DNA of 64,000 nucleotides from contig JBJDXJ010000038.1 of NCBI GenBank assembly GCA_051866635.1, positions 126,051-190,050 on the forward strand, in the 5' to 3' direction. Every line of letters starts with the position of its first letter. The stretch's first letter is position 1. A program made the position numbers and the translations under genes. This document shows positions 5,398 through 56,880 of the stretch, piece after piece. The notes beneath the pieces were generated by a model. It was not told the origin of the DNA, searched no databases, and saw only the letters and a list, made by a program, of their open reading frames with translations. Source of the DNA: Clostridia bacterium. Lineage in GTDB: Bacteria > Bacillota > Clostridia > UMGS1883.

Positions 5398-6968
5398 TGA
5401 ATATAGATATGAGTGTTTTAAAAAATGATGAAAGGGCGATTTTTACTCTGCGTTCTTTATATAAGAAGTACGGTTACAGCCTCTTTATGATGAGCAAGTT
5501 TGAAGAGTATGATTTATATGTAAGAAACAAAGATTTCTTAGTTTCCGACAACATAATCACTTTTAACGACACCGACGGTAAACTTATGGCATTAAAGCCC
5601 GATGTTACCTTGTCAATTATTAAAAATACAAAAAGCGGTCAGGGCGGTGTAAGAAAGGTTTACTACAATGAAAACGTATACCGTGTGTCAAAGGGGACAA
5701 ATTCCTTTAAAGAAATTATGCAGGTGGGACTGGAATGTATCGGTCAGATTGACAAAAGCCATATTACCGAGGTTATTTGTCTTGCGGCGGCAAGCCTTAA
5801 AAGTATTTCGGGAAAGTTTGTGCTTGACATATCCCACCTTGGTATCGTTTCCTCTGTTTTGAACAGGATGGACATAGAAGAAGGCGACAGAAAAGAAATC
5901 ATAAAAGCAATGGGTGAAAAGAATGTTCACCGCATTGAGGAAATTTGCAAAAACAACGGAAAAAATGCAGAAATGATTAAAAAGCTGGCATCAACATACG
6001 GCGAAAGCAGTTTGGTTTTAGAAAGTTTGAAGCAAATCTGCGGCGAATATGACGAAAATGTCAGGGAATTGGAATATATAACAAAGGTTCTGGAAAAAGA
6101 AGGATATAAGGATAATATAATTATTGACTTTTCAGTTATAAATGACGTAAACTATTACAATGGTGTTGTATTTAAAGGCTATATTGAAAATGTGGCAGAA
6201 GGCGTGCTCTCAGGTGGTCAGTATGACAACCTTTTGGCAAAAATGGGAAAGAGCGATAAGGCAATTGGCTTTGCAGTATATCTTGACCGTCTTTCACGTA
6301 TTGACAGTATGGACGAAATTGCAAACGAAAAGTCGGAAGAAAAAAAGATGCTTAACATTGCCCTTCCCAAAGGCAGACTTGGGGAAAAGGTATACTCAAT
6401 GTTTGAAAAGGCAGGCTTTGAATGTCCTTCCATAAAGGAAAACAACCGCAAACTTATTTTTGAGAACCAAGAAAAGGGTGTAAGGTACTTTTGGGTAAAG
6501 CCTTCCGATGTTTCCATTTATGTTGAACGGGGTGCCGCTGACATAGGTGTTGCAGGTAAGGATATTTTGCTTGAATATGAGCCTGATGTGTACGAACTTT
6601 TAGACCTTGATATAGGCAAGTGCCGTATGGCTGTTGCCGCAAAAAAGGACTTTACGGATGATACGGAAAAGACACTTCGTGTTGCCACAAAGTTTACAAA
6701 TATTACAAAGAATTACTACGCTTCACAAGGCAGGGATATTGACATTATCCACCTTAACGGCTCTATTGAAATTGCACCTATTTTAGGCTTAAGTGATGTT
6801 ATTGTTGACATAGTTGAAACGGGAACAACCCTTCGTGAAAATAACCTTGAAGTTATTGAAACGGTTGTACCTATAAGTGCAAGGCTTATTGCAAATAAGT
6901 CGGGCTTTATGTTCAAACGTGAAATGATTGAAAAGCTGACAGAAAGCATCAAAAATTTGGAGGAATAA
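5394..6968 (+). CDS. hisZG: In-frame fusion of the ATP phosphoribosyltransferase regulatory subunit (HisZ-like) and short-form catalytic HisG
   Basis: The first 318 aa are HisRS-paralog-like (YYNGVVFKGY, SGGQYDNLL, AIGFAVYLD). From ATG 6348 the sequence is HisG-like (MLNIALPKGRLGEKV ... VETGTTLRENNLEVIE). No stop codon separates the two halves. Confidence 0.85.
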   Translation: MMNIDMSVLKNDERAIFTLRSLYKKYGYSLFMMSKFEEYDLYVRNKDFLVSDNIITFNDTDGKLMALKPDVTLSIIKNTKSGQGGVRKVYYNENVYRVSKGTNSFKEIMQVGLECIGQIDKSHITEVICLAAASLKSISGKFVLDISHLGIVSSVLNRMDIEEGDRKEIIKAMGEKNVHRIEEICKNNGKNAEMIKKLASTYGESSLVLESLKQICGEYDENVRELEYITKVLEKEGYKDNIIIDFSVINDVNYYNGVVFKGYIENVAEGVLSGGQYDNLLAKMGKSDKAIGFAVYLDRLSRIDSMDEIANEKSEEKKMLNIALPKGRLGEKVYSMFEKAGFECPSIKENNRKLIFENQEKGVRYFWVKPSDVSIYVERGAADIGVAGKDILLEYEPDVYELLDLDIGKCRMAVAAKKDFTDDTEKTLRVATKFTNITKNYYASQGRDIDIIHLNGSIEIAPILGLSDVIVDIVETGTTLRENNLEVIETVVPISARLIANKSGFMFKREMIEKLTESIKNLEE

Positions 6969-6970
6969 GT

Positions 6971-8245
6971 ATGATTAAAATATTGGAATATTCATCTGTT
7001 AATAAAAATGATATATTTGCAAGAAGCGAAGCAAAGGTTAATGTGGCAGAAATCGTTTCCGACATTATTTCAAACGTGAGAGAGCGTGGCGATGAAGCGG
7101 TAAAGGAATACTGCAAAAAGTTCGACAAGGCGGACCTTACGAGCCTTCTTGTAACAGAAGAAGAAATTGACCGTGCATTTGAAGAAGTGGATGAAAAGTT
7201 TATTGAGATACTTAAAAAGGCAAGTGCCAACATACGTAAATTCCACCAAAAGCAAGTGAGGAACAGTTTTATCATAAACGACGAAAAAGGTATTGTAACA
7301 GGGCAGAAGGTAATCCCCGTTGACCGTGCAGGGCTTTATGTGCCCGGGGGAACTGCCGCATATCCTTCAACGGTTTTGATGGATGCTATCCCTGCCTTCA
7401 TTGCGGGGGTAAAGGAAATTGTCATGGTAACACCCCCTGACAAAAACGGAAATATAAACCCCGTAATACTTGCGGCGGCAAAGATTGCAGGGGTAACTAA
7501 AATATTTAAAACAGGCGGTGCACAGGCAATTGCGGCACTTGCCTACGGTACGGAAAGCATACCTAAGGTTGACAAAATTGTGGGCCCCGGTAACGCATTT
7601 GTTGCCGAAGCAAAAAAACAGGTTTTCGGTGTTGTTTCAATTGATATGATTGCAGGCCCCAGTGAAATACTTGTTGTAGCCGATAAAACCTGTAACCCCA
7701 AATATGTTGCGGCTGATTTGTTAAGCCAGGCGGAACACGATAAAATGGCAAGTGCCGTCCTTGTAACCGACAGTATGGAGCTTGCGAAAAATGTACAAAA
7801 GGAAATTGAAATACAGCTTGAAAGCCTTGAAAGGTACGAAATTGCCCGTGAATCTATTGACAACAACGGTAAAATCATTGTGGCAGATACACTTTATGCG
7901 GCTATAGATATTGCAAACGAATTGGCACCTGAACATTTAGAGCTTTGTGTGGACAATCCCTTTGACTATATTGACTCTGTCCGTCATGCAGGCAGTGTTT
8001 TCATGGGTAAGTATTGCCCCGAAGCCTTGGGCGATTATTTTGCAGGTGCTAACCACACCCTTCCCACAAGCGGTACTGCCAAATTTGCAAGTCCTCTTTC
8101 CGTTGATGACTTTGTAAAGAAAATGCAGTACACCTATTATACAAAGGACGCACTTGAAAGTGTTGCCCGTGACGTTGAATATTTTGCAAAAAAAGAAGGA
8201 CTTACGGCACACGCTAAAAGTGCTGTTATACGCTTGGAGGACTGA
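6971..8245 (+). CDS. hisD: Histidinol dehydrogenase
   Basis: 424 aa. Motifs: LYVPGGTAAYPSTVLM, QAEHD, GDYFAGANHTLPT. Sits within the his operon. Confidence 0.95.
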   Translation: MIKILEYSSVNKNDIFARSEAKVNVAEIVSDIISNVRERGDEAVKEYCKKFDKADLTSLLVTEEEIDRAFEEVDEKFIEILKKASANIRKFHQKQVRNSFIINDEKGIVTGQKVIPVDRAGLYVPGGTAAYPSTVLMDAIPAFIAGVKEIVMVTPPDKNGNINPVILAAAKIAGVTKIFKTGGAQAIAALAYGTESIPKVDKIVGPGNAFVAEAKKQVFGVVSIDMIAGPSEILVVADKTCNPKYVAADLLSQAEHDKMASAVLVTDSMELAKNVQKEIEIQLESLERYEIARESIDNNGKIIVADTLYAAIDIANELAPEHLELCVDNPFDYIDSVRHAGSVFMGKYCPEALGDYFAGANHTLPTSGTAKFASPLSVDDFVKKMQYTYYTKDALESVARDVEYFAKKEGLTAHAKSAVIRLED

Positions 8246-48530: not shown

Positions 48531-48571
48531 AAAAAATGCCTTGTAACCGTAAAAAGTTGCAGGGCATTTTT
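48531..48571. terminator. Bidirectional terminator hairpin to the left of the invertible segment
   Basis: aaaaaatgccttg-...-cagggcattttt forms a 12-bp stem with one G-U pair. A/T runs lie on both sides. Confidence 0.65.
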
Positions 48572-48755
48572 ATGCATTCAGGTATAATTCAATTCATAAT
48601 CAATGGAAATAAACACTTTATCTGATATAGTTACAATACAAGTTTGCAAACTTATTAAGTCCGTAAACTAAATATTTTCGGACAGCGTAAAAATCTGCAT
48701 TATTACTGAATTTTACGGCTTTTTATATCTAATGACAGCATAAGATGTTAAAATG

Positions 48756-48784
48756 ATTGTAGCACACAAACTGCGGTAAATCAA
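48756..48784 (-). promoter_or_regulatory. Outward-facing near-consensus promoter inside the segment (TTGATT, 17-nt spacer, TGcTACAAT on the minus strand)
   Basis: The reverse complement of 48756-48784 reads TTGATT taccgcagtttgtgtgc TACAAT. TG lies at -15/-14. Transcription would run toward the left repeat. Confidence 0.55.
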
Positions 48785-48871
48785 GTGTTTTGTCAAGTTT
48801 CTCCATTTTGTACAAAAATATTTTGTTTTATTCTCAGTCAGTATTGTAGTCAGATGAAAGGAAGTGTTGTT

Positions 48872-49924
48872 ATGGCTCGCAGAGGTGAAAATATTTATAA
48901 GCGTAAAGACGGTCGTTACGAGGGCAGATATATAAAATATTACGATATGTCCGGCAAGGCTGTTTACGGATATATTTATTCAAAAAGCTATATGGAAATC
49001 AAAGAAAGACTCGCAAAGTGTAAAACGGAAAGACAATCAGAAATTAAGGATTCAAACACTTTGCTTTGCGATTGGCTTGAAATATGGATGATGTCGCAAG
49101 GACTTTTAAAACCTACTACCAAAAGAGTTTATAAAAGCCATATTAAAAACCATATCAATCCGCAAATTGGTAATATTCCGCTAAAAAAGCTAAATGCCGA
49201 AATTTTGCAGAATTTTATAAACAGTTTGGAGTTGTCTGCTTCAACGATAAAAACAGTATTCAGTACATTAAAATCTGCATTATCAGAAGCAGAAGATAAA
49301 GGATTTATAACAAATGTATGGAGTAAGGTTAAATTACCCAAAAAGGATATATCAATAGTTCGGGTTTTATCGGCAGCAGAACAGCAACGGCTTGAAAAAG
49401 TATTAATAGACGGTGTCGATATGGGTATTTTAATTTGTTTATATACAGGGCTTCGTATAGGGGAATTGTGTGCGTTAAAATGGTCGGATATTAACTTTGA
49501 ATTGTCAATACTGACTGTAAACGGAACACAGGCAAGAACAGAAAACGGTGTTGAAATTATATCTCCAAAGAGCAAGAGCTCAAAAAGAGAAATTCCTATA
49601 CCGCCGTTTCTTCTTGATAAAATCAAGTCACTACCACGAAAAGGTAAGTTTGTTGTTTCAAAATACGGAAAGCCTTTTGATGTCCGCACTTACAGGAGGC
49701 ATTTCAAAAAAATATTGAAAAAAGCGAATTTGCCGGATATAAAATTTCATTCCCTGAGGCACACATTTTCAACCCGTGCTTTAGAGGTGGGTATGGATTA
49801 TAAAACCTTGTCGGAAATTCTCGGTCATTCATCGGTAGCAATTACTCTTGATTTGTATGCACATTCTCTTAAAGAGCATAAGAAAAATCAGATGTGCAAG
49901 CTCGTCGAAATTTATAATTCATAG
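48872..49924 (+). CDS. Tyrosine site-specific recombinase/integrase with an N-terminal arm-type DNA-binding domain
   Basis: The ORF runs 48785..49924. The likely start is ATG 48872 (GAAAGGAAG RBS). The N-terminus is MARRGENIYKRKDGRYEGRY. Catalytic motifs: TGLRIGEL, HSLRHTF and LGHSSVAITLDLYAH. Confidence 0.9.
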   Translation: MARRGENIYKRKDGRYEGRYIKYYDMSGKAVYGYIYSKSYMEIKERLAKCKTERQSEIKDSNTLLCDWLEIWMMSQGLLKPTTKRVYKSHIKNHINPQIGNIPLKKLNAEILQNFINSLELSASTIKTVFSTLKSALSEAEDKGFITNVWSKVKLPKKDISIVRVLSAAEQQRLEKVLIDGVDMGILICLYTGLRIGELCALKWSDINFELSILTVNGTQARTENGVEIISPKSKSSKREIPIPPFLLDKIKSLPRKGKFVVSKYGKPFDVRTYRRHFKKILKKANLPDIKFHSLRHTFSTRALEVGMDYKTLSEILGHSSVAITLDLYAHSLKEHKKNQMCKLVEIYNS

Positions 49925-50198
49925 TCAAAGTTTATAGTCAGAAAGGCGTAAAGGCTGATTAAATCACAGTCTTTACGCTTTTTGTCCGAAAATATTTAGT
50001 TTACGGACAAATGGTAAATAAATCAAGTTATTATTACTATTTTTATAGTTATTATGTGTTATTGACGGAAAATTTAATACAAGAAGGTGAGAAAATGTTT
50101 TTAAACAAAGAGTTAAAAGTGTTAATGCCACCTTAGTTATGAGGGAATTAACTTTAATATCAAAATACAATAATGATTAACTGAAAGGATTTACAAAT

Positions 50199-53153
50199 AT
50201 GAAAAAAATAATTACAGCATTGTTGGCATTTGTAATGCTCGTGTCTAGTACAGTGTCATTTGCAGCAAATGAAATGTTTTTTTACAAAGACGAAACAAAA
50301 GTATATTTCAATAATGAATTTGTTGATATTTTAGATGGAGAAGGTATAGCACCAACAGTCAAAGATGGTGTATTTTATGTGCCAATCAGACCATTCGTAG
50401 AATTGAAAAATGGATATATTACATGGAAAGTTAATGGCGAAAAACTCCAAGCCGATTTTGCAGTAGGAAGTTATTATACAATCCAGGATAATTCTAATGA
50501 AATAGTAGAATATACAGGTGTAAATGAAACATTAAGTGCAGAAGTTTTTCTAAACACAAATTACAATCGTTTAATGGTTCCCGCAGATACATTTGAGAAG
50601 TTAGGATACAAAATAATTCAAGGCGATGACTATTTAGGAATATTCTCAATATCCAAACATGAAGATGTTCAAGCTATTGCATTTGATAGGAATTCTACCA
50701 TTTCCGAAGCTACTGTTAAATATACTCTTTTAAATGATAAGGGTGATGTATTTATAAGAGATTTATCAAATACTGGTGATATTGTTAATACAGTAGTTGG
50801 TGGTTTGGGAGCTTCTATTGACATTACAGTAAATAATGGTAGTGTGGACAGTGCAACAATTTCATTTGCATATGATGAATCAAAATTAGGCACAACAAAC
50901 GAGTCTGATTTAAAAATTGTATGGTATAATGAAATTTTAGGACGCATGGAATTGTTGGAAAATTCTGTTGTAGACACAAACAATAATGTTGTATTAGTTC
51001 AGTCATCTCATTTTAGTAAATACAGTGTAGTAGATTCCAAACAATGGTATGCAGCATGGGCAGAAACACAGTTAATAAAAAGAGATGATACTAAAGGAAA
51101 TGGCTTATTTAATGTTAATTTAGTATTGGATACATCAGGAAGTATGAACGGTTCAGTTGCTTTATTAAAAGAAACCGTTATTAAGTTTATAGACGGATTA
51201 AATGATAATGATATTATAAATGTAATAACTTTCTCAAACGGTGCAGAAACATTAATAGACAGCAATTCAAAATCAAATTCAAACTATGAAAATATTATCA
51301 ACCGTATATCTGCAAACGGTGGAACAGATATGATTTCCGGATTAAATGAGGTTCTTTATGGCAATATACTTATAGAGCCTGTAAATCCCACAGAAGAAGA
51401 AAAACTACAATATGAACAACACAAGCAAATTCAAGATTTGAAAAACAATGCAACGACTGTTACTATTTTATTATCCGACGGTGTGCCGGATTCAGATAAT
51501 AATACTGATGATATCATATCATCATGCAAAACTATTGCATTAAGAGGAAAATTTATTTCTGTAGCATTAGGCTCAGGTTCTCATTCGGCACTAATGGAAA
51601 AAATAGCAAAGGAAACAAACGGATTATATAAATATATAAGTGATTCTAATGGATTATTAGAAATGTTTATGCAAATAAGTGGTGAAGTTATTGGTCTTGA
51701 GCAGGATACAGATGGTGATGGAATCCCCGATTTAATTGAGACAACAGGCATGAGAGATCAAGCCGGAAATATATTTACAACTGATCCAAACAAAGCTGAC
51801 ACAGATGGAGATATGTTGTCTGATGGTGATGAAATGGGTGTGTTTGTAAATGAAAATGGAGGTTATTTTATAAGGGAATCTAATCCTAATATATTTACTA
51901 CGTTCCAAAGTATTGCACAATTAGGAGATAATTCAATAGATGCTTTGTTCTCAGACTATAATGGTAATTTTAAGATTAAGTTAAATATGAATGTATTGTC
52001 AGAGAAAATTATGGAAAAAACTGTATTTTCATCTTCTGGAAATGCTGTAAACCATTCAGCAATGGAAACTCTTTATGCAAGTGTACAAAACTTGAAGATT
52101 TCTTTTTCAAAATTACCAGATTGCATAGAAAATCCTCAATTAGCACCATATCAGGTTGCTGTTGCTGAATCAGGACATTCATATAATTATATCGTCGTTG
52201 CAAAATGCAAAAATGGTGGAGTAAATTGTAAAAACAATCATACAATAGAAATTACTATTAGTGGAGATAACCTTGATCCAGTAGTAGTTAAACAAGATGT
52301 TGATTTAAATCAGATTATGTTAGAACAAGCAAGAAAAGATGTTTCTTCAATTCAAACTGAAATATCAAATCAAACCAAACGAAAAGCAACTGAGTATGTA
52401 ACATCGGAAAATACAAAGGTATACAATAGCTCTAACGAATTGCTGAATAGTATAAATTTAATTCAAACCAATATACCAAATGATGCACAAATTGCTATAA
52501 AAAATGTAATTATGAATTTGGTTGCTGAGAAAAAGGGATTGGAAAAAATTAGTATAAATCCATCACAGCAAATTAAGGATTGTGCCGAATTAATCGGTAT
52601 GGTAAATGATGAAACATTTTATCCTGTAATTAACGGAGTTCAATACGAAGTACATATCACAGGAAGTTTTATTCCTAAAATTAATTTATTTTCGTTGCCC
52701 TATATAAACGGTACTTGCAATGTGAAAAATAAACCTAATGAAAAATATAGTTTTTCATATATTCCTACCGACAGGGATGAAGTTAATAAATTTTTAGACG
52801 CATACAATAAGGCATTGGATGATTCAAAACAAGAGGCTATTGAAGAAATAGATAAACAAGGAAAAGCAGCAATAAAATCTATTTTAAATGAAACCTTTAA
52901 GGCGTGGGGCGTTACTGAAATAATGAATAAGTTAGAAGCAGATGCACTAAAGGAAGTTGGAATTTATGAGGAAGTGCAGATGTATAAAACAGGTTTAGAC
53001 CTATTAGAAAAAGTTTCGTCTACTGAAGGGTTTTCACCTAAAGATGCTGTTGATACTTGTAAAGAATATAAGGATTATGGAACGAAAAGCAGTATAATAA
53101 GTGATTGGGCAACAGATAAAATAACAGATTTAATAAAATTTCTTTCAAAATAA
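50199..53153 (+). CDS. Secreted multidomain protein: copper-amine-oxidase-N-like domain, vWA domain (MIDAS), thrombospondin-type-3-like Ca-binding repeats and an unknown C-terminal half
   Basis: 984 aa with signal peptide MKKIITALLAFVMLVSSTVSFA. It has a FYVPIRPFVELKNG stalk-like domain and VNLVLDTSGSMNGS (DxSxS MIDAS). Ca-binding repeats: DTDGDGIPDLIE and DTDGDMLSDGDE. Confidence 0.75.
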   Translation: MKKIITALLAFVMLVSSTVSFAANEMFFYKDETKVYFNNEFVDILDGEGIAPTVKDGVFYVPIRPFVELKNGYITWKVNGEKLQADFAVGSYYTIQDNSNEIVEYTGVNETLSAEVFLNTNYNRLMVPADTFEKLGYKIIQGDDYLGIFSISKHEDVQAIAFDRNSTISEATVKYTLLNDKGDVFIRDLSNTGDIVNTVVGGLGASIDITVNNGSVDSATISFAYDESKLGTTNESDLKIVWYNEILGRMELLENSVVDTNNNVVLVQSSHFSKYSVVDSKQWYAAWAETQLIKRDDTKGNGLFNVNLVLDTSGSMNGSVALLKETVIKFIDGLNDNDIINVITFSNGAETLIDSNSKSNSNYENIINRISANGGTDMISGLNEVLYGNILIEPVNPTEEEKLQYEQHKQIQDLKNNATTVTILLSDGVPDSDNNTDDIISSCKTIALRGKFISVALGSGSHSALMEKIAKETNGLYKYISDSNGLLEMFMQISGEVIGLEQDTDGDGIPDLIETTGMRDQAGNIFTTDPNKADTDGDMLSDGDEMGVFVNENGGYFIRESNPNIFTTFQSIAQLGDNSIDALFSDYNGNFKIKLNMNVLSEKIMEKTVFSSSGNAVNHSAMETLYASVQNLKISFSKLPDCIENPQLAPYQVAVAESGHSYNYIVVAKCKNGGVNCKNNHTIEITISGDNLDPVVVKQDVDLNQIMLEQARKDVSSIQTEISNQTKRKATEYVTSENTKVYNSSNELLNSINLIQTNIPNDAQIAIKNVIMNLVAEKKGLEKISINPSQQIKDCAELIGMVNDETFYPVINGVQYEVHITGSFIPKINLFSLPYINGTCNVKNKPNEKYSFSYIPTDRDEVNKFLDAYNKALDDSKQEAIEEIDKQGKAAIKSILNETFKAWGVTEIMNKLEADALKEVGIYEEVQMYKTGLDLLEKVSSTEGFSPKDAVDTCKEYKDYGTKSSIISDWATDKITDLIKFLSK

Positions 53154-53378: not shown

Positions 53379-53553
53379 CCTTAATTATGCCAAGGAAATT
53401 TTAAGAAACATGAAAGGTCCTGATGTAAAGAATTTTGATGACCTGAAACTTGTCACCAAAAAAGACTTTAAAGACAAGTTTTGGATAATATGCAGTCGCC
53501 TGCTTTTAGATTTTATTTTAAAATGCTGTATAATAAAAGATAAGGGAGTGTGA

Positions 53554-56500
53554 ATGTATATGAAAAAAGTGGCGTTTATATTAGCTTTAATAATGTTGTT
53601 ATCTTTTTGCCCGTGCATAAGCTTTGCTGATACGGAATATAAGCTCCGCAACGTTAATGACGGGGCATATACGGAAGTCAGTATGAGCGAGTATCAGACA
53701 TATGAAACGGAGCACTTTCAGATTTTTTGGGATACTGACGGCGCAAACAGTGCTAAGGTGACGGACACGTTTTTGAAAAAGTGCGAAACTGTACTGGAAA
53801 ACTGCTGGGATTTATATATTGACAAAATGGGAATGGAACCCACAAGCACGTCTGTAAATTGGGATGGAGATAAAATAACCCAGTACAAAACAAACGTAAT
53901 TTTAATGGGTACAGGCGTTACGCATTATGATTTAGGTGCAAATGACTGGGGCGCTTACGGCTCGGTTGATTCCTGCGGTTACCCGTATTTTATGTGCTGC
54001 TTAGCGGCAATGGATGCACCTACGGTTGTGGCACATGAGTTTGGTCACGCAGTGCATTACGCCCAGGGCGACAACGCATGGAAGGATAATATTTTCCTCG
54101 GCCCTTGGTTTGAGGCGGTGGCAAACTGGTTTGCAGAGCAGTATATTTACGAATATATGCCCGGTACGACACAAATGTCCCATCTGTATCTGAGGGAAAC
54201 ATCTCTTACAAAAATGAACGGCAGAGGCTATTACGAAGCCTGGCCCATCCTTCAGTATTTAACGGAGGACCCCGACAACACGGAAGTATACGGCGAAAAC
54301 TTTGTGCAGAAGCTCCTTAGCTATAACTCCGGCAGTACATCGACCCTTTTCTGGGAGGTGCTGGAGGCTTGTAACGGCAATTTAACAACTGCCGATACTG
54401 TTGGTATGTATGCTTCACACATTGCCACAATGGATTTTAAAAATAAGGATTTATATAACCGCTATATAAATAACTTTTATAACGGTCATTATTTCTACTG
54501 GCAACAGCGATACACAATGCTTGAAAAGTTAGGCAAAGAGGCAAATACATATGCCGTGCCCTTTGAGAGAGCTCCTCAGGCGATGGGATATAATATTACG
54601 CCGCTTAACTTTACACCCGGCGAGGTAACGGTTAAGCTCAATGCTTTAACAGATGTTTACGGCGCAGACTGGAGAGCAAGACTTGTCAAGGAGTCAAACG
54701 GTGTGACAAGTTATTCAAACCTTTTCTCCGACGGCGAAGAGGTGACAATGAATGTGACAAGTGGGGATGAATTATACCTTTCCGTTGCGGCAACACCTTC
54801 CCTTGACACAATGCCCCGTCATACTATTACAGGTTGGGCGGAGCACAGCAAGGAATCAAACTATCCTTATGAAAATAAAACACAGTACCCCTACAGCGTT
54901 ACCCTTACAAATGCAACACCTATGTCACGTCCCGTCTATAGCGGATTGAAACAGCATCCTAACGGTGGGGGATGGATTTCATATAACGCAAACGTGGCAC
55001 CTACTGCATATGTTGGTCCCAACGCGTTGGTGCTTGACCGTGCAACAGTAAGTGACAATGCGGTAATTGACGGTTACGCAATCGTTGCACAAAATGCAAA
55101 GGTAAGCGGCAATGCATATGTTGGCGACACGGCAGTGCTTTTTGACCGTGCCCAGGTCAGCGGAAATGCAAGAGTGATTGAAAACGCCTGCCTCTATGTT
55201 GACTATAAGGTTTCCGGCAATGCTGTTGTAAAGGGACAGGCGTTAGGATTATACAATGGTACAGCAACCGGAGAAACAATCCTCTACGGCGACTGGTTTG
55301 AGGATGAGGGCCACGATTTGAACGGCGGAAGATTTTCGGGCTGGCACTCTATTTCAACGGATGACAAGTATGCAACAAATAATGGCGACTATTATACACG
55401 CGACTATATAGCAGGTCTCCGCACAAGATATGAATTTAATTCTAACTTAAAAGACACCTACGGTTATACCGACCTTTACAGCGTGGGAAACCCTGTGGTG
55501 GATAACGATACCGTGACCTTTGACGGCAAAAACTATGCAGTTCTTGACGATTCTGTCCTTTATTATGACAATATGAAAATTGCCCTCAAAGCAAAAGGCG
55601 AGGGCGAAGTTTTAAATATCGGCGACTGTATTGTACTTACTTTGAATGACAAAGCCATATTGAATGTTGGCGGTAAAACAGTTTCTGTTAATGCCAATGA
55701 CGGTTGGAACGATATTGAAATCGACTTTAACGATGGTGCTGTAACACTCTCCGTAAACGGCAGTGAAAAGAGCCAAAATAGTACTGTCACACCTCTTGAA
55801 GCAACACGAAGCGGTGAAAACTATATAGGCAAAGGCTTTACGGGCAGTGTGGACTATATGCGTATTTTTGATTTGGCAACCTATGTTGAAAGTGACAGCA
55901 TAGATTATACCAGACTGTACCTTGTATTAAATCCTGAAAATAAGAATGCTTTTTATGGGTGGAGGACAGACAGTTCAAACGTAACCTTTAATAAAGGGCT
56001 ACATATTGCGGGTAATACCACGGCAACTGTTACAAGTCCTTCCTGCAAGGCAAACAAGTTTATACTTGAATTTTCACCCTCGGGCGGCAGTACATACCCC
56101 GACCACGGCATTATGGACACAGACGGAGATGTTTTATTCGCACACCGTTATGCAACCGATGCAAAAACGGTATATGTTGGAAGAGGCGAGGTTAATTCCT
56201 ACGTAAGAGGCAACAGCTATATTACGGATGCTGCCGCACAGCAGAGGCTTACTAATTTTGTTGCCGAAAAGATTGAGAATGCAAGTGCAAGAAGTGACCG
56301 TGGTGCGGTGAATTATGCTGAAGGCGATACGGTACGCATAATCGCAGAAAACACAATATGGACAGAGAAAATGGCTGAAAAATTTGCAAACAGTGAAAAC
56401 TATACAGACAATCTTTCTGCTATGACAGATGGAGAAGATGTTTACACTGTAACATACTACTTGATTGACGATGGTTTAACAATGAAGGTCAGCGAAAGTG

Positions 56501-56880
56501 TATACAAGGGCCATTTTAAAGGCTTTGGAGGGTTTAAGGCTGCAGGCGGTACAAAAGGTGTAACGGTTTCGTACAATGACTTGAGGATTTATACAGACAA
56601 TGCTGAGCCCAAGATAATATGTGAAGATATGATGATTAAGTCTGAAGGCTTTGAAGGCGAAGCTTTAGCCGTTTTTGCAGTGTATGATGAAAGATTTGAT
56701 GTTTACACCGAAAAAGTAAAGGGAGATTTTGAAATACCTATCCCCGAAGGCTTTGAAAACAGCAAGTTTATGCTTTTTACAAATCTTGAAGATTTATATC
56801 CTTTAGTAAAATCATTTGATGTGCAGGGGGAAAATATTTATACTGCTTCTGCAGGACAGAATGAGGATACGTTTTTTTGA
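53554..56880 (+). CDS. Secreted HExxH zinc-metallopeptidase-like protein with LbH-type repeats and LamG/concanavalin-like modules
   Basis: 1108 aa. The start is ATG 53554 or 53560 (MKKVAFILALIML). Motifs: HEFGHAVH at 54040-54063 and TEHFQIFWD. A hexapeptide-like run reads VSDNAVIDGYAIVAQNAKVSGNAYVGDTAVLFDRAQVSGNARV. Confidence 0.6.
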   Translation: MYMKKVAFILALIMLLSFCPCISFADTEYKLRNVNDGAYTEVSMSEYQTYETEHFQIFWDTDGANSAKVTDTFLKKCETVLENCWDLYIDKMGMEPTSTSVNWDGDKITQYKTNVILMGTGVTHYDLGANDWGAYGSVDSCGYPYFMCCLAAMDAPTVVAHEFGHAVHYAQGDNAWKDNIFLGPWFEAVANWFAEQYIYEYMPGTTQMSHLYLRETSLTKMNGRGYYEAWPILQYLTEDPDNTEVYGENFVQKLLSYNSGSTSTLFWEVLEACNGNLTTADTVGMYASHIATMDFKNKDLYNRYINNFYNGHYFYWQQRYTMLEKLGKEANTYAVPFERAPQAMGYNITPLNFTPGEVTVKLNALTDVYGADWRARLVKESNGVTSYSNLFSDGEEVTMNVTSGDELYLSVAATPSLDTMPRHTITGWAEHSKESNYPYENKTQYPYSVTLTNATPMSRPVYSGLKQHPNGGGWISYNANVAPTAYVGPNALVLDRATVSDNAVIDGYAIVAQNAKVSGNAYVGDTAVLFDRAQVSGNARVIENACLYVDYKVSGNAVVKGQALGLYNGTATGETILYGDWFEDEGHDLNGGRFSGWHSISTDDKYATNNGDYYTRDYIAGLRTRYEFNSNLKDTYGYTDLYSVGNPVVDNDTVTFDGKNYAVLDDSVLYYDNMKIALKAKGEGEVLNIGDCIVLTLNDKAILNVGGKTVSVNANDGWNDIEIDFNDGAVTLSVNGSEKSQNSTVTPLEATRSGENYIGKGFTGSVDYMRIFDLATYVESDSIDYTRLYLVLNPENKNAFYGWRTDSSNVTFNKGLHIAGNTTATVTSPSCKANKFILEFSPSGGSTYPDHGIMDTDGDVLFAHRYATDAKTVYVGRGEVNSYVRGNSYITDAAAQQRLTNFVAEKIENASARSDRGAVNYAEGDTVRIIAENTIWTEKMAEKFANSENYTDNLSAMTDGEDVYTVTYYLIDDGLTMKVSESVYKGHFKGFGGFKAAGGTKGVTVSYNDLRIYTDNAEPKIICEDMMIKSEGFEGEALAVFAVYDERFDVYTEKVKGDFEIPIPEGFENSKFMLFTNLEDLYPLVKSFDVQGENIYTASAGQNEDTFF

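Follow-up and report, generated by a model that had tools for sequence, protein, structure and literature searches.

Does the segment at positions 48659-50008 of the stretch studied here invert, and if it does, which gene is switched? The stretch, referred to below as the window, comprises 64,000 nt of contig JBJDXJ010000038.1 from the Clostridia bacterium assembly GCA_051866635.1. In it, two perfect inverted repeats enclose a gene for a tyrosine recombinase, next to a gene for a vWA protein (50199-53153). An earlier note, made from the sequence, had described an invertible segment with its own recombinase and an outward promoter, at present off for the vWA gene. This reading is supported by the inversion of homologous cassettes, by the conservation of the promoter and by the rarity of strong promoters belonging to the adjacent genes, and we consider it quite probable that the segment is an active invertible promoter switch that is currently off for the vWA gene.

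The left inverted repeat, GTCCGTAAACTAAATATTTTCGGACA, lies at 48659-48684 on the plus strand, and the right one, at 49983-50008 on the minus strand, is its exact reverse complement (26 of 26 nt), with 1298 nt separating the two arms. When up to three mismatches are allowed, the 26-mer has these two copies in the window and none in 100 shuffles. Each repeat is built like a core-type recombination site. In the left copy, two 9-nt arms, GTCCGTAAA (48659-48667) and TTTTCGGAC (48675-48683), are complementary at eight of nine positions and flank an asymmetric 7-nt spacer, CTAAATA (48668-48674). Both the perfect 26-nt repeat and its lox/FRT/dif-like construction, with 9-bp arms and a 7-bp asymmetric spacer, had been pointed out in the earlier note; both are borne out here, and 9-7-9 proves to be the commonest core layout in the wider family.

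Inversion of homologous cassettes

Related loci were retrieved via the peptides NIYKRKDG and LYTG[LI]RIGE. The earlier note had proposed looking for both orientations in homologous loci, and an all-against-all comparison of the fetched loci found them: seven independent loci, from different samples, were assembled in both orientations. At all seven the signature is that of inversion, the cassette matching plus/plus while both flanks match on the minus strand and are swapped. Homologous cassettes thus invert, and two of these loci belong to fairly close relatives. At the first, P0063, a relative at 70% identity, the core (TCCGTAAACTAAATCTTTTCGGACA) is one mismatch away from that of the window. 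A 1299-bp segment is 100% identical between the two forms, and the flanks agree at 299 of 300 and 300 of 300 positions after flipping. Among the matches listed (13 similar places lie beyond them), the P0063 cassette is co-directional with a glycosyltransferase operon in 7 of 10 and reversed in 3 of 10.

The second locus, P0009, is a relative at 79% identity and bears on where the exchange takes place. Its two cores have in common GTAAACTAAATATTTTC, which corresponds to the spacer and inner arm bases of the window core, and differ in their outer bases. The flipped contig (L102) has a hybrid core that combines the outer arm of the right site with the left site's inner arm, exactly the product predicted for a crossover within the 17 nt in common. 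The remaining five inverting loci belong to relatives at 35-42% identity. Further look-ups for two other loci, P0044 and P0014, gave no new flips, and in three strains of Enterococcus raffinosus the cassette carried on megaplasmids was found in one orientation.

Two further observations were made at related loci. At P0063 (approximately 6159-7118; L002, L004 and L010 versus L003, L005-L009 and L011), the adjoining glycosyltransferase is full length (319-320 aa) in most assemblies and truncated or split (approximately 209-213 aa, or 109 + 223 aa) in three, which suggests that, besides the inversion, frameshifts also vary the regulated gene. Elsewhere, two isolate contigs, one from Ruminococcus sp. 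YE282 (L047, 1407 bp) and one from Clostridium aminobutyricum DSM 2634 (L062, 1424 bp), consist entirely of one cassette bounded by its repeats. Such contigs are suggestive, as they fit a mixed orientation or several copies in culture. The short repeat-bounded contigs of a 92% relative (L013 and L014) were also considered as evidence of mixed orientation and were dropped because their two ends share 30 identical nt. If Logan assembles with 31-mers, shared ends of this length would by themselves break the assembly graph.

The outward promoter and the layout of the family

The layout of the window recurs widely. A public-protein search returned thousands of relatives of the recombinase, many at 60-92% identity in uncultured Clostridia and Oscillospiraceae, which the databases label 'site-specific integrase' and nothing more. 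In a collection with one genome per species, at least 590 places encode relatives (35-92% identity), and a metagenome scan added at least 587 further places. A perfect flanking inverted repeat of at least 14 nt is present at 105 (84%) of the 125 loci that have the gene complete and 450 nt or more on either side, compared with 11 of 400 mismatched pairs of left and right flanks. In relatives the repeats are 14-34 nt long and their placement is constant: at the median, the left repeat precedes the start codon by 195 nt, the right repeat follows the stop codon by 63 nt, and the whole cassette measures 1421 bp. Made non-redundant by clustering at 90% nucleotide identity, the loci form 107 cassettes. 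The 9-7-9 core was recognized in 54 of the 80 cassettes whose arms pair at seven or more of nine positions, a palindromic spacer in none of the 107, and the repeat sequences vary by clade (beginning, for instance, with GTCCGTAAA, GTCCTTAAA, TCGCAAAAC or TTCGTAGAG).

The best-conserved non-coding feature of the family is the outward promoter, a near-consensus sigma-70-type promoter, often with an extended -10 element, located between the left repeat and the recombinase start in the 107 cassettes. On the strand opposite to the recombinase, this stretch scores at least 10 in 93% of cassettes and at least 11 in 75%, whereas on the recombinase strand the same thresholds are reached in 21% and 3.7%. 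The corresponding values are 3.9% and 0.3% for control stretches of equal length inside the recombinase gene, 10.7% and 1.9% for the 120 nt outside the right repeat, read outward, and 1.9% and 0% for the 3' tail of the cassette, also read outward.

In the window, the predicted promoter occupies 48784-48756 on the minus strand, with the -35 element TTGATT at 48784-48779, a 17-nt spacer and the extended -10 element TGcTACAAT at 48764-48756. Transcription is predicted to start near 48749. Like the family's promoters without exception, it is directed outward across the left repeat, from which its -10 element ends 71 nt away; this distance is 60-90 nt in the clade of the window and has a median of 35 nt in the family. 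Taken alone the site is unremarkable, since the region has 9 promoter-like sites where 10.1 are expected in shuffles, and its significance therefore comes from its conservation across the family and not from its own score. The earlier note had placed the promoter at exactly this position, and it is aligned in close relatives. Also anticipated there, and found again here, was a bidirectional terminator at 48531-48571, a hairpin (-14.5 kcal/mol, z=-2.3) followed by a U-run, UUUUUUAUUU, on the minus strand. Its plus strand ends the upstream Fer4 gene. At the other end of the cassette, directly before the right repeat, a strong hairpin with a T-run at 49941-49983 on the plus strand (-21.9 kcal/mol, z=-5.0, a stability reached by none of 200 shuffles) would keep transcription of the recombinase gene from reaching the gene downstream.

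The predicted regulated gene (50199-53153, plus strand) encodes a protein of 984 aa with VWA and Cu_amine_oxidN1 domains, whose N-terminus resembles a signal peptide by inspection. For the TSP3 repeats named in the earlier note, which are putative, the signs are a short NCBIfam match below threshold (residues 501-554; 24.7 bits, with the cutoff at 400) and Asp-rich motifs recognized by eye. The earlier note had found no strong promoter belonging to this gene, and indeed the 190-nt gap that precedes it contains no promoter match of at least 9 of 12; a riboswitch or other known RNA was not found in the leader in Rfam at E<=1.

With these elements, the two states of the switch can be sketched. 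The promoter 71 nt inside the left repeat, the sole strong one predicted in the cassette, would transcribe away from the recombinase gene. As assembled, it would run into the terminator at 48531-48571 and leave the vWA gene off, and the hairpin at 49941-49983 would in this state also shield the vWA gene from recombinase transcription. After inversion, the promoter would read across the right repeat into the vWA gene, giving it a leader of approximately 281 nt. The flipped junctions are predicted to read CAAACTTATTAA, GTCCGTAAACTAAATATTTTCGGACA and AAAAGCGTAAAGACTG in succession on one side, and CAGATTTTTACGC, TGTCCGAAAATATTTAGTTTACGGAC and AAATGGTAAATAAAT on the other.

Two side observations concern the vWA gene and its surroundings. 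Its leader includes a 12-codon frame, MFLNKELKVLMPP, with the ribosome-binding site AAGGTGAG (50095-50133), which is not conserved in L001, a related locus on another contig. Further downstream, the gene at 53554-56880 encodes a protein of 1108 aa of the DUF6055 / Svx-AvrXca type, with hexapeptide-repeat matches and an N-terminus that looks like a signal peptide by eye. Since a promoter-like site of its own (53505-53534) and a weak terminator-like hairpin precede it, this gene is probably outside the switch.

Genes of several kinds adjoin the cassettes. Of 100 cassettes, 85 have a gene whose 5' end abuts the repeat on the recombinase-3' side; on the promoter side, 32 of 96 have such a gene. 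In some cassettes the neighbour's start codon comes so soon after the repeat (0-55 nt; 25 nt at L002) that a separate promoter would not fit between them. The neighbouring genes are varied and encode secreted and surface proteins (Cu_amine_oxidN1, SLH, VWA, BspA-type LRR and pilus TadZ-like), chemoreceptors, glycosyltransferases and transcription regulators. In the clade of the window, 8 of 10 neighbour genes encode cell-surface/envelope or secreted proteins (SLH, cohesin, Cu_amine_oxidN1, VWA, GLUG/dockerin), which fits the vWA protein at the window. Two genomes, BNUF01 (L041 and L060) and JAMPDU01 (L081 and L091), each carry two divergent recombinase genes of the family on different contigs; the two cassettes of BNUF01 have different cores, and at L091 the flanking repeat was not callable.

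Some members depart from the one-sided arrangement or reside on other replicons. Outward-facing genes were detected at both ends of 25 of the 107 cassettes (e.g. L056, L080, L038 and L097); in Ruminococcus flavefaciens (L093), these encode 819 and 628 aa and are separated from the cassette by gaps of 38 and 55 nt. Two-sided cassettes of this kind could toggle a single promoter between two genes rather than turn one gene on and off. A small gene of the TnpV family lies approximately 0.5-1.5 kb upstream of the left repeat at L001 (1774-2154) and L192 (1965-2315). L001 is a plasmid-like contig with ParM-like, MobC/NikA and HicB genes, and L192 has a large serine recombinase nearby; judging from such gene content, some cassettes travel on mobile DNA. 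The megaplasmids of E. raffinosus (L185-L187) carry a member at 37% identity with inverted repeats of 18-25 nt, upstream of a helix-turn-helix regulator and an accessory SecA2/SecY2 secretion locus. A match on a plasmid of Ruminococcus albus 7 was not accepted as a family member, as it lacks a flanking repeat and lies among other recombinases.

The recombinase and its candidate arm-type sites

The tyrosine recombinase (48872-49924, plus strand, 350 aa) is preceded by the ribosome-binding site AAAGGAAG and, as in the initial reading of this DNA, is the sole gene between the repeats, no other credible gene being present there. It matches the Pfam families Phage_integrase (E=3e-28) and Phage_int_SAM_3, and the Pfam scan of the protein gave no Resolvase domain, the mark of serine recombinases. 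The reading frame is intact and the catalytic residues R195, H293, R296, H319 and Y329 are invariant in an alignment of 16 sequences (the window and 15 relatives). Two familiar identities were considered and rejected. As an Xer chromosome-dimer resolvase, the protein scores far under the cutoffs of the equivalog models (100 bits against 220 for XerA, 83 against 335 for XerC and 63 against 330 for XerD). As a small invertase of the Fim type, it falls below the cutoff of the NCBIfam model NF007370, 'tyrosine-type DNA invertase' (22.5 bits against 221), and at 350 aa it has an extra N-terminal domain.

By sequence, the closest relatives of solved structure are Tn1549 Int (E=4e-17), archaeal Xer recombinases (approximately 1e-16 to 4e-15) and lambda Int (E=4e-10). 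In an AlphaFold model (mean pLDDT 79.7), the N-terminus forms a three-strand sheet (strands at 8-10, 16-24 and 30-37) followed by a helix (40-52), with a pLDDT of 63-84 for this block; the core-binding and catalytic domains come next. Searched with Foldseek, the model retrieved Tn1549 Int (E=1.6e-16) and full-length lambda Int across approximately 350 columns. The N-terminal 68 aa gave no Pfam sequence match, and in the PDB one insignificant match, to a Piwi protein (E=0.8). Given that sequence matches to known arm-binding domains are absent, the identity of the N-terminus as an arm-binding domain is supported by the predicted fold alone. By sequence and model, then, the recombinase is a three-domain tyrosine integrase of the lambda/Tn916 type, and would be heterobivalent.

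An integrase of this type raises the question of where its arm-type sites would be. Across the 107 cassettes, GTCA, mostly in the form (CC)GTCA-N8-GTCA, clusters at two places on the recombinase strand. The first is 25-50 nt before the start codon, where a single 10-nt bin (-40) has 82 matches against a background of approximately 5; the second is 0-30 nt after the stop codon, with 48 and 60 matches per bin in the 0 to +20 bins. The enrichment is 10- to 15-fold at both ends of the gene and restricted to one strand, the complement TGAC not being enriched. In the window, a first candidate pair (GTCA at 48837-48840 and 48849-48852, plus strand, 12 nt from start to start) lies just upstream of the ribosome-binding site of the recombinase, and a second (49924-49927, overlapping the stop codon, and 49937-49940) has the same orientation. 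These tandem GTCA pairs are candidates for arm-type sites, judging by their position and recurrence, and would be recognized by the conserved N-terminal domain.

The reaction may then proceed as follows. The C-terminal domains of the recombinase would bind the two cores, and recombination within the spacers of these inverted cores should invert the 1.3-kb segment rather than excise it. The N-terminal domain probably binds the GTCA pairs, bridging arm and core sites as in lambda Int. As these arm sites travel with the segment, the geometry of the sites would be the same in both orientations, and the reaction should therefore reverse without a directionality factor.

Other short sequences in and around the cassette may take part. 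Downstream of the outward promoter, in its leader, the window shares the conserved stretch ATTATTACTGAATTTTACGGC (48699-48719) with L001, L013, L015 and L017. Within this stretch, TTTTACGGC resembles the core arm TTTTCGGAC, and CGTAAA is also present in the hairpin stems at 49945-49979 and in the inner left sequence at 48685-48697; these occurrences may be extra core-like binding sites. Outside the repeats, approximately 70 nt on the left (48589-48658) are conserved with L001 (90% identity) and partly with L015, and approximately 72 nt on the right (50009-50080) are conserved with L001. The left stretch includes a promoter-like site on the plus strand, TAAACA-16-TACAAT (48610-48637), which reads into the cassette and could tie expression of the recombinase to orientation. 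The right stretch includes TTGACGGAAAATTTA at 50062-50076. The motif TTGACGGnAAATTTA follows the right repeat at approximately 55-60 nt. L001, L017, L019 and L096 have it equally far out, L015 has a TTGACTG variant there, and the genes alongside are unrelated. The motif is the complement of the arm-type half-site CCGTCAA, lacks a matching -10 element and may be an external accessory site.

Alternative readings, known systems and significance

Several results speak against an active switch of this kind at the window or limit the comparison. No flipped copy of the window locus was found: look-ups with the flanking Fer4 and vWA proteins gave only two contigs, L012 and L095, which are 100% identical, come from a single Logan sample (SRR30616850) and have the orientation of the window. 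As the two other copies found share one orientation, inversion at the window locus itself is something we infer. An exact look-up of the window recombinase in public assemblies had no record, and an exact 25-mer core search of the metagenome collection had no match. The promoter of the window scores 10.5 (TTGATT / TACAAT), below the family median of 11.5. The weaker similarity that the earlier note had followed inward from the repeats (GCGTAAAAATCTG versus GCGTAAAGACTG) does exist in the window, but its right copy is simply a stem of the terminator hairpin, and L002, the 70% relative, does not retain the match. Because the N-terminal motif was one of the retrieval peptides, its conservation is partly built in, and the recombinase's own promoter was not picked out in the promoter scan of the 107 cassettes. 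A hairpin with z<-2 follows the recombinase gene in only 37% of the family, so that a terminator at this place was rejected as a family-wide trait and read-through is possible across the family. Finally, if the outward promoter is the sole driver, approximately 85% of reference assemblies would be in the off state, which is plausible yet unexplained.

Part of this evidence would also be expected of a fossil or silenced switch, that is, of a locus that keeps the family layout and does not invert in this organism, the vWA gene being permanently off or expressed from another weak promoter. The single orientation of all copies found of the window locus fits such a reading, as do -10 and -35 elements weaker than in most relatives. 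The missing flip means little, however, since a single sample is involved. Moreover, the repeats remain identical at 26 of 26 positions, the recombinase has an intact frame and intact catalytic residues, and the GTCA pairs and the hairpin are intact too. We regard a fossil switch as improbable.

Somewhat less probable again is the opposite polarity, in which the assembled orientation is the on state through read-through from the recombinase gene, and the outward promoter serves an antisense RNA or control of the recombinase. The co-directionality of recombinase and adjacent gene in 85 of 100 reference assemblies and the scarcity of clear hairpins after the recombinase gene are in line with this polarity. 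At the window it is unlikely because the hairpin with its T-run before the right repeat is very stable (z=-5) and the tail of the cassette is without a promoter (0% at scores of at least 11 in the family, in which promoters on the recombinase strand are weak as well). Moreover, at P0009 a large dockerin/GLUG gene sits on the side of the outward promoter.

It is very improbable that the segment is a small transposable element, its repeats being transposon ends and its recombinase moving the segment rather than flipping it. Related cassettes do lie beside unrelated genes in different genomes, and some contigs end exactly at the repeats. The homology between the window and L001, a plasmid-like contig, extends approximately 55-70 nt past both repeats despite different neighbour genes (L001 3628-3697 and 5050-5123). 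Against mobility stand the seven loci at which the same flanks were found with both orientations and a precise junction, and the hybrid core at one of them. The window has one copy of the cassette, its repeats are built as core sites with an asymmetric spacer, and the junction sequences that were read have no target-site duplication, although no systematic search was made. The contig ends of L013 and L014 share 30 nt, which is enough to break the graph in a 31-mer assembly. The last alternative, an ordinary integrase of a mobile element or prophage remnant with an incidental inverted repeat, draws on the bare annotation of relatives as site-specific integrases and on a conjugative-transposon integrase as the closest solved structure, and its chance is practically negligible, as direct repeats and element-sized cargo are lacking, the flanks are ordinary chromosomal genes and the inverted-repeat geometry recurs in 84% of relatives.

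The preferred reading, an invertible promoter switch with its own integrase, can be set beside several known systems. The Salmonella Hin/hix/fljBA system, to which the earlier note had likened the locus, also has a recombinase and an outward promoter inside a segment of approximately 1 kb, and the promoter reads into the surface-protein gene next to it. Hin itself belongs to the serine invertases and requires a Fis-bound enhancer. The likeness therefore holds for the layout but not for the enzyme, a tyrosine recombinase in the window, where the promoter is divergent and placed at the 5' end of the recombinase gene and candidate arm-type sites take the place of the enhancer. The fimS switch of Escherichia coli, with FimB/FimE, is likewise a promoter inversion by tyrosine recombinases between short inverted repeats that controls a surface structure. 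Fim-type invertases have approximately 200 aa and no arm-binding domain, and their genes lie outside the switch, which measures 314 bp, whereas the window protein has 350 aa and three domains and is encoded inside the 1.3-kb segment. Lambda Int, Tn916 Int and Tn1549 Int have the three-domain architecture, and the best structural matches are to Tn1549 Int and lambda Int; the GTCA motifs lie at a distance from the cores, as arm-type sites do. These integrases integrate and excise between directly oriented sites, with directionality factors; here, in contrast, the cores are inverted, there is no cargo gene beyond the recombinase, and inversion is seen in relatives.

The second analogy of the earlier note was to the RecV switches of Clostridioides difficile (cwpV, flgB, cmrRST), which also combine a Firmicute host, a tyrosine recombinase and promoter inversions, and which control cell-wall or surface proteins in this way [PMC5903667]. 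This analogy holds at the level of function. RecV is a single enzyme that serves, in trans, several small switches at scattered genomic positions [PMC5903667], whereas each cassette of the present family has its own enzyme, a three-domain integrase of the lambda/Tn916 type, and its own core, with different cores within one genome; the comparison with RecV made here is one of arrangement and mode of action. A tyrosine recombinase within or beside the inverting locus is also found in the hsdS inversion loci of type I restriction-modification systems with PsrA/CreX-type recombinases, a type widespread in Firmicutes [PMC7672463]; these loci shuffle the coding sequence of the specificity gene, whereas the window cassette moves a promoter and leaves the coding sequence unchanged.

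A full-text literature search, which covers few subscription-journal papers, found no description of this cassette family. Recombinases have been noted 'near or occasionally within' invertible segments [PMC5903667, PMC9881135], and one published pipeline discards invertible regions that contain or overlap coding sequence [PMC8748976]; because it carries its own recombinase gene, the cassette would be filtered out by that pipeline. With confidence slightly short of even, we propose that the window harbours one representative of a large Firmicute superfamily of autonomous 'plug-in' cassettes for phase variation. Each would consist of its own lambda/Tn916-type integrase, private inverted cores, internal GTCA arm sites and one outward promoter, and this would be the first arm-site-assisted integrase to serve as a dedicated invertase.

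The family would account for recurrent contig breaks of 1.3-1.4 kb in assemblies, and it offers many naturally orthogonal, self-contained pairs of recombinase and site for genetic memory devices. If the proposal is true, an integrase of the lambda/Tn916 type that acts as an invertase with travelling arm sites would represent a new route to reversibility without a directionality factor. Compared with Bacteroides or C. difficile, the Clostridia of gut and rumen have been charted far less for phase variation, and here one recognizable cassette is found upstream of surface proteins (SLH, cohesin/dockerin, VWA and BspA-type), glycosyltransferases and regulators.

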